27,815 nucleotides of DNA. Origin: an uncultured Muribaculaceae bacterium. Its GTDB lineage: Bacteria > Bacillota_I > Bacilli_A > RF39 > UBA660. Positions 24,742-27,815 of the stretch are shown piece after piece (position 1 is the first letter of the stretch; each line of letters begins with the position of its first letter). The notes beneath the pieces are model-generated. The model was not told the origin of the DNA and did no database searches. It worked only from the letters and a program-made list of their open reading frames with translations. The position numbers and the translations under genes were made by a program. The stretch lies in the NCBI GenBank assembly GCA_964651795.1, contig CAZYWD010000001.1, positions 1 to 27,815 of the forward strand, written 5' to 3'.

Positions 24742-25020
24742 ATGTTGAATAAAGAAGCAATTAAGAATCATCTAAATTATTTGAAAAACAATAAATTTTC
24801 AATGGAATTTTATATTGCATTATTACTTTATGATATGTCAATAGTGGAATCTAACAAAGTTATAGATAAAAACATTTCATGGAATATACAAAAAATGTTT
24901 GATGACATGTATAAAAAAGATTTAAGAGATAAAATTAAACAAAATAAAAATCTAAAAAATAAAAAAATAGAAAAAAGTGTAAATGAAACTAAAGAAATTG
25001 ATTTTGAGGTAGATGTATGA
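24742..25020 (+). CDS. Hypothetical protein (92 aa) translationally coupled to the sortase
   Basis: SD AGGAAAGG; ATGA overlap with the next gene. Confidence 0.65.
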   Translation: MLNKEAIKNHLNYLKNNKFSMEFYIALLLYDMSIVESNKVIDKNISWNIQKMFDDMYKKDLRDKIKQNKNLKNKKIEKSVNETKEIDFEVDV

Positions 25021-25760
25021 GAAAAATTGAAAAAATAGTTTTCATACTTTTTTTATGCCTCTTTTGCTTTTCTTTATATAATTATTTAAATAGTTATCAC
25101 TATTTAAGATTAGAAAATAAAGTTCAAAATGAGTTGATTGAAATTGCAACATCTGATGAATTATCTGTTATAGAAGGAATAAATATAGAACAGACTTCAA
25201 AAATAAACTTTGAAGAACTAAAAACAATTAACAAGGATGTAGTTGGATGGATAAAGATAGATGGAACAAATATTGATTACCCTGTTGTACAATCCGATAA
25301 TAATAGTTATTACTTAAAACGTAATATATATAAAGAATATAGTCCTTATGGTACAATTTTTATTGATGCTACTTCTAGTTTAAATTTTAGTGATAATAAT
25401 ACTTTTATATATGGACACAACACATTAAATCGTTCGATGTTTGCAGATATTAAAAAGTATATGAATAAAGAATTTTACAAAAATAATCATGCTTATCTAT
25501 ATACGCCTACTAAAAATTATAAAATTGAAATTTTTAGTGCTTATTACGATGATGCAATGTCTGATTCATATATTTTAAAATTTAATAATGATTTAGATTG
25601 GATTAATTATTTAGATATAATAAAATCTAAAAGTTTTTATAAAACAAATGTAGAGGTTAATGTGAATGATTCAATTATAACTTTGTATTCTTGTAGTTTT
25701 GAAAAAAGTAATAATAAAGATAATAGGTATTTTATTCATGGTAAGTTAATAGAAATATAA
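25017..25760 (+). CDS. srtB: Class B sortase
   Basis: N-terminal anchor; INKDVVGWIKIDGTNIDYPVVQ, YGHN (His), TLYSC (Cys), RYFIHG (Arg). Confidence 0.92.
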   Translation: MRKIEKIVFILFLCLFCFSLYNYLNSYHYLRLENKVQNELIEIATSDELSVIEGINIEQTSKINFEELKTINKDVVGWIKIDGTNIDYPVVQSDNNSYYLKRNIYKEYSPYGTIFIDATSSLNFSDNNTFIYGHNTLNRSMFADIKKYMNKEFYKNNHAYLYTPTKNYKIEIFSAYYDDAMSDSYILKFNNDLDWINYLDIIKSKSFYKTNVEVNVNDSIITLYSCSFEKSNNKDNRYFIHGKLIEI

Positions 25761-25860
25761 ATTTTTTTATTGAATATATTTAAAATAGGATTGCTTTGAA
25801 TTGATGTTTTAATTAAGATTTATAAGATAAGGTTCAAAAATAATTAAAGGGGGAATCAAA

Positions 25861-25983
25861 TTGAACAATTCTTTCAAAGTGAAAAATATTTTTAAAAACA
25901 TTGATAATAATGATAAATTAAAGATTCAAGAGGTGTTTAATTTAAAACTTTTAAAAATAATAATCTTGTTAGAAAAAATATAG
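25861..25983 (+). CDS. Unannotated 40-aa ORF upstream of the recombinase (candidate recombination directionality factor)
   Basis: SD AAAGGGGGA (25846-25854), TTG start, MNNSFKVKNIFKNIDNNDKLKIQEVFNLKLLKIIILLEKI*, TAG 25981-25983; too short for the ORF track. Confidence 0.6.
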   Translation: MNNSFKVKNIFKNIDNNDKLKIQEVFNLKLLKIIILLEKI

Positions 25984-25997
25984 AATTTTAATATGGG

Positions 25998-26026
25998 CTG
26001 AAAAAAATACTATCATATGCTATAAT
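25998..26026 (+). promoter_or_regulatory. Extended -10 sigma-A-like promoter for the recombinase
   Basis: TG-C-TATAAT (26018-26026), weak -35 CTGAAA 17 nt upstream. Confidence 0.5.
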
Positions 26027-26085: not shown

Positions 26086-27687
26086 ATGAAGAAAAAGGTA
26101 GGTGTTTATTGCAGGCTGTCAGAAGAGGATCGAATTAAAGACCATATTTCTGACGAAAGTGAAAGTATTCAAAATCAGAGAAATATGCTCTTAAAGTATG
26201 TTTATGATAATGAGTGGGATTTATATGATGTTTATGTTGATGAGGATTATTCTGGAGCAGGTGTAGAAAGACCGGATTTTAACAGATTAATTGCCGATTG
26301 TGAAAATGGAAACGTAAATATTGTTATTTGTAAAACTCAGTCTAGATTTTCAAGAGATATGGAAGTAATTGAAAAATACTTGCATAATAAATTTGTAGAG
26401 TGGCGAGTAAGGTTTATTAGTTTATTAGATAATGCAGATACCGATAATAAAGGAAATAAAAAGGCAAGACAAATTAATGGACTTACCAATGAATGGTATT
26501 TGGAAGATTTATCTGAAAATATTAAAGGAACTTTATTGTCAAAAAAGAAAAGAGGAGAATTTACTGGTAGTTTTGCACCACTTGGATATATGAAAGATCC
26601 AGTTGATAAAAATCATTTAGTAATAGATCCAATTGCAAGTAAATATATTAATAAGATATTCAATCTATATAAACAAGGATATGGATATCAAAAAATCGTA
26701 AAACAATTGAATAAAGAAGAAATACCAAGCCCTTATGAGTACAAAAAAATGACGGGTAGCAATTTCAAAGTAATTAATTGTAAACAAAAATCATCTTGGA
26801 GTATAGATACTATATCAAAAATATTGAGGGATGAAGTTTATATTGGAAATTTAGTACAAGGGAAAACAAGGCATATTAGTTATAAGAATAAAAAATCTAT
26901 AAAAGTTCCAAAAGATGAATGGATAAAAGTTGAAAATACACATGATAAAATAATCGATTTAGAAACTTGGAATATTGTTCAACTTAGACTTGGGAAAAAT
27001 CTAAAAACTCAAAAAGGGACAGAAAAAGTTCATATTTTTTCAGGGAAAGTTTATTGTGAAAAATGTGGAAAAATATTTTGTAAAAATACAGGGCTCACTT
27101 CTACTGGAAAAGTACATTATTTGGAATGTAAGAGTAGGAGAAACGGGCATCGTGATTGTAATAATACTCGCGCAATTCGTTTTGATTATTTGGAGAAATG
27201 TATTATAGATTCTATGAATTGTTTACTAAAGCAATATTATAATGAATCATTACTAAATGATAATTACAAAAATTTAAAAAGCAAATCTAATCAGACATTT
27301 TTGAAAATAGAAATATTGCAAAAAGAACAAAATGTCATACAAAATCAAAAAGAAAAAAAACAAAGATATTATGAAAAACTTTATGAGGATAGAGTAGATG
27401 AAGTGATTACTGATAAAGAATTTAGAGACTTTAGAAAAAAATATAGTGAAGAAATAGAAAAATTAGAGAATAGGCTATTTCAAATAAATAAGGAAATAGA
27501 AGAACTTTCACAAAAAAAACAAAATATAAAATCGCAGGATAAAATACTCAGCAAATATAAACACATTGATAAATTAAATAGAGAAATTATTGATGAATTT
27601 ATTGATAGAATATTAGTTGGAGGGTTTGATGAAGAAACAGGACAACGATATCTTACAATTGAATGGAATTTTGAATTTTATGAGTAA
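26086..27687 (+). CDS. Large serine recombinase (resolvase catalytic domain, recombinase domain, zinc ribbon, coiled coil)
   Basis: VYCRLS (catalytic Ser12), YVDEDYSG, RPDFNRLI, KTQSRFSRD, APLGY, zinc ribbon FSGKVYCEKCG...LEC...C, C-terminal coiled coil; SD AAGGAAGG. Confidence 0.97.
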   Translation: MKKKVGVYCRLSEEDRIKDHISDESESIQNQRNMLLKYVYDNEWDLYDVYVDEDYSGAGVERPDFNRLIADCENGNVNIVICKTQSRFSRDMEVIEKYLHNKFVEWRVRFISLLDNADTDNKGNKKARQINGLTNEWYLEDLSENIKGTLLSKKKRGEFTGSFAPLGYMKDPVDKNHLVIDPIASKYINKIFNLYKQGYGYQKIVKQLNKEEIPSPYEYKKMTGSNFKVINCKQKSSWSIDTISKILRDEVYIGNLVQGKTRHISYKNKKSIKVPKDEWIKVENTHDKIIDLETWNIVQLRLGKNLKTQKGTEKVHIFSGKVYCEKCGKIFCKNTGLTSTGKVHYLECKSRRNGHRDCNNTRAIRFDYLEKCIIDSMNCLLKQYYNESLLNDNYKNLKSKSNQTFLKIEILQKEQNVIQNQKEKKQRYYEKLYEDRVDEVITDKEFRDFRKKYSEEIEKLENRLFQINKEIEELSQKKQNIKSQDKILSKYKHIDKLNREIIDEFIDRILVGGFDEETGQRYLTIEWNFEFYE

Positions 27688-27736: not shown

Positions 27737-27788
27737 TTATTTGGTTACTTATGTACCCTCACATGGTGGATTAGATCCAGGTGCTATG
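27737..27788. other. Right attachment junction (attR-type hybrid site); predicted crossover dinucleotide CA at 27762-27763
   Basis: Element arm TTATTTGGTTA (27737-27747) is the inverted partner of 70-80; the host amidase frame resumes after it. Confidence 0.85.
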
Positions 27789-27815
27789 TATCAATCTGTA
27801 ATGGAAAAAGATATT
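27762..27815 (+). pseudogene. cwlD: 3' continuation of the interrupted CwlD-like amidase (runs off the right window edge)
   Basis: CAT GGT GGA TTA GAT CCA GGT GCT ATG ... GAA AAA GAT ATT = HGGLDPGAMYQSVMEKDI, the Amidase_3 segment containing the second zinc ligand (Glu in EKD). Confidence 0.8.

Follow-up and report, generated by a model that had tools for sequence, protein, structure and literature searches.

A 40-residue protein encoded upstream of a large serine recombinase is a candidate recombination directionality factor for an element that splits cwlD

The window analysed here, a stretch of 27,815 nucleotides, is contig C1 of a 788-kb assembly (53% complete, 23.7% G+C) of an uncultured bacterium of the RF39 lineage. 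The cwlD pieces, the sortase-domain gene, the small gene and the recombinase gene described below lie on its forward strand. Near its right end is the gene of a 533-residue large serine recombinase (LSR; 26086–27687), in which a domain search recognises Resolvase, Recombinase, zinc ribbon and DUF4368 domains. Most relatives of this LSR carry the label of uncultured Bacilli, and the host is probably a gut bacterium. Directly upstream lies a small gene (25861–25983) that starts with TTG, encodes 40 residues and ends with a TAG at 25983, exactly 102 nt before the recombinase ATG at 26086. It is preceded, at a spacing of 6 nt, by the Shine-Dalgarno (SD) sequence AAAGGGGGA (25846–25854), and a G-rich SD at equal spacing is kept across the family of related small genes. 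As an estimate of chance, only 12 reading frames of 35–55 codons with an SD occur in the 788-kb genome. The SD, start codon, product length and gap, from which a sequence-only reading had proposed this frame as a recombination directionality factor (RDF), are all exact in the sequence. A start at the in-frame GTG at 25879 was rejected, as SD spacing and family alignment both favour the TTG. The neighbour upstream, a co-directional gene with a sortase domain match, occupies 25017–25760.

The small protein is basic (4.8 kDa, pI 9.8). Hydrophobic residues alternate at positions 5, 7 and 11, the alignment has a helical pattern at 22–37, and the overall arrangement is a predicted beta-strand at about 5–12 followed by a helix at 16–39. 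Modelled alone with AlphaFold, the protein is a single helix (16–39) with a loose N-terminus. Its earlier description as amphipathic holds as the alternating strand pattern plus the helix.

The element that carries both genes interrupts the sporulation gene cwlD, and precise joining of its flanks restores the reading frame. Positions 1–52 are the last part of the 5′ portion of the cwlD-type amidase gene. This gene begins on contig C129, whose overlap with the left end of the window is 55 nt. The 3′ piece starts at 27761–27815 and goes on in contig C97, again with a 55-nt overlap. Two ACA cores, attL at 53–55 and attR at 27761–27763, define an element of 27,708 bp. The central dinucleotide is most likely CA (54–55), the first two bases of the histidine codon of the GHGG motif, and the reconstructed attP arms are symmetric at 15 of 30 positions about CA versus 7 of 30 about AC. 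The left end of the window enters the GHGG motif and the right end resumes it. Since the insertion falls in this histidine codon, the split gene cannot give an active enzyme; the histidine is one that we take to be a zinc ligand (Amidase_3).

Rejoined at the ACA core, the flanks from C129 and C97 form an intact 221-residue frame with a hydrophobic N-terminus, 55–75% identical to intact orthologues of the genus and family and with a downstream neighbour in common with them; the proposed split of cwlD is real. On TIGR02883 (spore_cwlD), the 3′ part by itself reaches 196 bits, which is under the cut-off of 221.55, as are most intact relatives, while amidases other than cwlD score at most 81 bits. 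In two other genomes of the genus (L098, L100), the corresponding cwlD site is occupied by a related LSR with its small gene. In the literature searched, we found neither cwlD as an interrupted gene nor a cwlD-interrupting element. Across 100 loci, the flanking genes fall into rough classes that include LysM amidase (33), cwlD (13), ABC ATPase (8) and collagen-like genes (5).

Pfam recognises no phage or relaxase gene among the reading frames of the element. A C5 DNA methylase gene is split over two adjacent frames at 215–1299 (Pfam positions 3–232 and 274–323). At 24742–25760, a 92-residue frame overlaps the sortase-domain gene, with no obvious sortase substrate nearby; the pair is possibly left over from a conjugative or pilus module. 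Both contig breaks around the element coincide with the ACA core to the exact base, as expected of a de Bruijn graph if reads of an empty attB site are present, which hints at such reads. The assembly holds 43 overlaps of this 55-nt kind, so an element-free strain explains the hint as well as excision does. At another break, between contigs C114 and C153, a LysM-amidase gene that is itself intact is divided right after the GHGG histidine codon, the preferred site of this LSR clade, a hint that the sample also contains an allele with this site occupied.

The 40-codon frame is a real, conserved and selected gene that is tied to this LSR clade, which comprises 173 clusters at 50% identity. Members of the family are 33–51 residues long, have a G-rich SD and lie directly upstream of the LSR. 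The small gene is found there in 58 of 58 loci with upstream DNA (among L001–L059), one copy being frameshifted, likewise its LSR; it was not found upstream of the LSR in L060. In 44 of 44 further loci with LSR identity of at least 43%, a few of them duplicates of earlier loci, the best six-frame match of the locus is just upstream of the LSR. A six-frame profile search upstream of LSRs at most 38% identical gave no family member. Conservation upstream of related recombinases, one of the checks suggested with the original proposal, is thus positive, and it holds in the reverse direction: 25 of 26 whole-genome matches to the small-protein profile precede an LSR, the single exception being the second-weakest match, in another family. 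Among distant library matches, six of eight precede an LSR; one is followed by an apparent IstB fragment, and one lies on a contig that ends 142 nt on. With an HMM built from the relatives, the window's own copy left out, the small gene comes out on top when all 10,742 six-frame pieces of the genome are scored, with 18.7 bits (E 6.7e-4) against 11.8 for the runner-up.

Fifteen disjoint close pairs give a pooled dN/dS of 0.40, with 90 of 246 changes synonymous versus 20% expected (p ~1e-9). Small-protein identity tracks LSR identity (Spearman 0.72, across kin that are not independent). In the family alignment, K29, L30, I34 and E38 are conserved together with the strand-plus-helix hydrophobic pattern. 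The start codons are ATG in 30 members, TTG in 12, GTG in 6 and ATA in 4 (n = 52; locus L004 left out), and the weak ones suggest low translation. Small gene and LSR overlap in some loci and are up to about 300 nt apart in others.

The family is without a name in Pfam, NCBIfam, PHROGs and PDB. No family in the first three covers any of 32 members, the best matches (E ~0.02) being to single members, and a PDB profile search with the family returned one irrelevant match (E 4.1) and no match to SprB. The small protein has no ESM Atlas match at ≥0.9 and no match in GenBank phages; a fold search gave no Z ≥5, 40 residues being too short for it to inform. A mainly phage origin was set aside, as LSRs of this clade occur on only two viral contigs.

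The lack of any common sequence makes RDFs difficult to find, and most LSRs are without a known RDF. In spite of lacking a common fold, known RDFs all bind DBD2 at the coiled-coil junction (PMC12286644), as is likewise seen in the SPbeta Int-SprB structure (PMC11722253). We modelled one candidate among the small reading frames of the element, the 40-residue protein, in complex with LSR residues 308–533. The model scores 0.78 versus 0.01 for the best control, a mark that 58 of 80 solved pairs attained but only 2 of 110 mismatched ones; at least 88% of contacts are common to its runs, with a partner pLDDT of at least 83. In the predicted complex, residues 6–12 of the peptide pair as an extra beta-strand with the last strand of the LSR (523–527), residues 23–30 pack on 380–385 and 504–505, and a helix face formed by F26, N27 and L30 rests on the segments leading into and out of the coiled coil (380–397 and 487–505). 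This places the modelled interface at the DBD2/coiled-coil junction, the coiled coil itself (398–486) being outside the named contacts. The sequence-only reading had called for a model with the coiled-coil domain; the result is positive, but the predicted contact is with DBD2 and the coiled-coil-flanking segments and not along the coiled coil. The predicted interface of the LSR is more conserved than the other residues of 360–533 (0.62 versus 0.52, p 0.006).

The LSR profile matches the recombinase of the solved SPbeta Int-SprB complex at E 4e-29. Because a structure of that complex exists and its recombinase is a homologue, the model may partly recall a known pose, and what it shows is likeness to the known RDF pose rather than binding. 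Of 11 predictions tested in a published virtual pulldown, 4 were not functional RDFs (PMC12286644). Taking linkage, selection and model together, we consider the 40-residue protein to be the cognate RDF of the adjacent LSR with a probability of roughly 0.8, acting in the manner of Skr, GirX or SprB but with no significant sequence likeness to SprB.

The logic of an excision switch is itself well known from skin, gin and SPbeta. The likenesses to Skr, GirX and CD1234 given here rest on their published descriptions. Skr of the Bacillus subtilis skin element is likewise the product of a small, previously unannotated frame that lies immediately before the LSR gene in the same orientation, on an element that also splits a mother-cell gene. 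Skr has 64 residues, and its gene overlaps spoIVCA by 101 nt in the order skr-spoIVCA and shares its sigma-E promoter (Suzuki et al., PMC6957869). In contrast, the protein described here has 40 residues and a separate gene, a probable second promoter precedes the LSR, and the target is cwlD instead of sigK. GirX of the B. cereus gin element, a 42-residue RDF of GirC proven in vitro (Abe et al. 2017, PMC5595907), is of near-equal length, has no known motif, is often unannotated and belongs to a non-phage element in a sporulation gene; however, its gene lies apart from girC on an element in gerE, whereas the small gene here adjoins the LSR. In the Clostridioides difficile skin element, a sigma-A promoter drives the LSR while the small RDF, CD1234, is under separate control, and the promoter layout seen here fits that logic. 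CD1234 is a protein of 72 residues with an acidic pI of 5.5 and a mapped sigma-E/SpoIIID promoter (Serrano et al. 2016, PMC5025042), unlike the basic 40-residue protein (pI 9.8), whose gene has no recognisable sigma-E box.

SprB, the RDF of SPbeta SprA (PDB 9DXD series; PMC11722253), shares the strand and C-terminal helix, while its dispensable N-terminal helix is absent from the 40-residue protein. Comparison with SprB (SPbeta YotN) gives no BLAST match and an hhalign probability of 1.8% (P 0.027, not significant); this alignment, itself not significant, lays residues 5–32 without gaps on SprB 23–50 with strand and helix in register. SPbeta is an active phage, whereas no phage gene is recognised in the element here. 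The sprB gene is at the right end of the linear SPbeta record, beside the att site and presumably at the opposite end from sprA, whereas the small gene here stands before its LSR.

Between the small gene and the LSR, the promoter-like motif noted earlier is confirmed as a sigma-A-like extended −10 site, CTGAAA-17-TATAAT with an extended TG (25998–26026; 10 of 12 matches), which is probably a separate promoter for the LSR. Sigma-A-like sites in this AT-rich stretch are near chance (9 versus 5.5 ± 2.6 in shuffles), but 29 of 38 relatives have TA[TC]AAT no more than about 42 nt from the stop of the small gene, versus 159 of 661 background windows. Upstream of the small gene itself, neither visual inspection nor motif counts revealed a canonical sigma-E or sigma-K promoter. 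The gene is without a CATA-type mother-cell −10 box and has only TTTATAAGAT (25819–25828), a possible variant −10 box that is uncertain; TTTATA at that distance is found in 13 of 58 relatives versus 45 of 458 background regions.

In L003, L008, L010, L011, L017 and their kin, a conserved SD with a mini-ORF of about 6–11 codons and an internal GGAGG lies about 45 nt before the small gene. The mini-ORF ends with TTTATAG or TTTATAA just before the small-gene SD, and a role in translational control or as a promoter is possible.

The timing of expression is where the original proposal, that the frame is a switch restoring cwlD, stands only in part. The RDF idea is well supported and the split of cwlD is real, but sporulation-specific expression meets the missing CATA box and a sortase gene after which no terminator was found before the small gene. 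The same two observations favour a different regime, in which the RDF would be expressed by a mobility or stress programme of the element through read-through, as in xis-int, with cwlD restored incidentally or the spores of the carrier germinating poorly. The co-directional upstream gene, which in many relatives ends about 60 nt before the small gene, also suits this, as do the 39 of 58 non-redundant upstream regions without CATA within 30 nt of the SD. Set against it, CATA is found 3–30 nt before the SD in 19 of 58 family members versus 48 of 458 background regions, a pattern noted post hoc among kin that are not independent, and a CATA −10 box precedes cwlD in 13 of 15 relatives and in the host's own copy. 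The host has a mother-cell programme: it encodes SpoIVA above cut-off, a Spo0A-like fragment and a sigK-like gene over two overlapping contigs, and the RF39 order is predicted to sporulate (PMC10868615). The absence of recognised phage or relaxase genes also counts against a mobility programme. Finally, cwlD is sigma-E controlled in C. difficile (in B. subtilis it is transcribed in both cells) and is required for a germination-competent cortex, and there should therefore be selection for timed excision. On balance, we regard sporulation-timed expression of the small gene as plausible and slightly favoured, and expression by the mobility programme as rather unlikely.

Binding may also occur without a change of direction. 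The peptide could then be an inhibitor that holds the element in place or a cofactor for both reactions; likeness in binding site alone does not set function, some of the partners predicted in the published pulldown blocked recombination or left it unchanged (PMC12286644), and near-universal linkage suits an obligatory subunit as well. However, the tested small binders of the DBD2 junction from comparable elements (SprB, Skr, CD1234 and GirX) all promote excision, and a separate LSR promoter after the small gene suggests no fixed ratio of the two proteins, so that we find this reading improbable. Even less credible is a leader or regulatory frame that tunes LSR expression, or a frame conserved through an overlapping promoter, with the protein irrelevant. 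The TTG, GTG or ATA starts of 22 of 52 members, the overlap of the small-gene 3′ end with the −35 region of the LSR promoter in many relatives and a dN/dS that is merely moderate could be read in this way, but the conserved residues and hydrophobic pattern lie away from the promoter overlap, the gap to the LSR varies widely, and the predicted complex is strong and specific.

If the 40-residue protein is the RDF, then by analogy with the SPbeta Int-SprB structure it would restrain the coiled-coil hinge from the DBD2 junction, which would block attP × attB and allow attL × attR recombination. The latter would excise the 27.7-kb element and rebuild cwlD. Its own sigma-A-like promoter would probably give low-level expression of the LSR, and the small gene, whose start codon is often weak, would be the regulated input of the switch. 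Its activation in the sporulating mother cell, which we favour only narrowly, is the weakest inferred step.

At 40 residues, the protein would be about the smallest RDF form, near SprB minus the dispensable helix, and its family supplies a candidate cognate RDF for a whole LSR clade. Such candidate LSR–RDF pairs lend themselves to reversible integrase tools and to tests of the hinge-restraint model. If the proposal is true, cwlD joins the genes rebuilt by excision during sporulation, in an uncultured lineage with reduced genomes. We would give even odds to the wider picture, in which a widespread family of minimal strand-plus-helix RDFs of 33–51 residues, some with ATA starts, serves a single clade of LSRs in uncultured gut Bacilli. 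The targets of this clade would be cwlD and LysM amidases, at their zinc-histidine codon, as well as ABC-ATPase and collagen-like genes; cwlD would be developmentally rebuilt, and more than 100 LSR–RDF pairs would be at hand.

Several minor observations concern other loci. In the host assembly, the intact sigK-like gene is broken between contigs C50 and C21 by a 55-nt overlap starting at AAATGA in the ENEILMH codons, which we take to be the insertion site of the B. subtilis skin element; a skin-like element may be present there in a co-occurring strain. In L002, L037, L039, L043, L050 and L058, ATA comes after a strong GGAGG and the usual start codons are all missing; these members probably initiate at ATA. 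Longer LSRs (630–690 residues or with an N-terminal extension) in L051, L055–L060, L190 and L219 retain the small gene, except in L060, and several of these loci are inserted in collagen-like genes. In L064, L065, L068, L070 and L073, with LSRs 27% identical, a different 55-residue frame with a strand-then-helix look and no score with the small-gene family HMM lies at the equivalent position.
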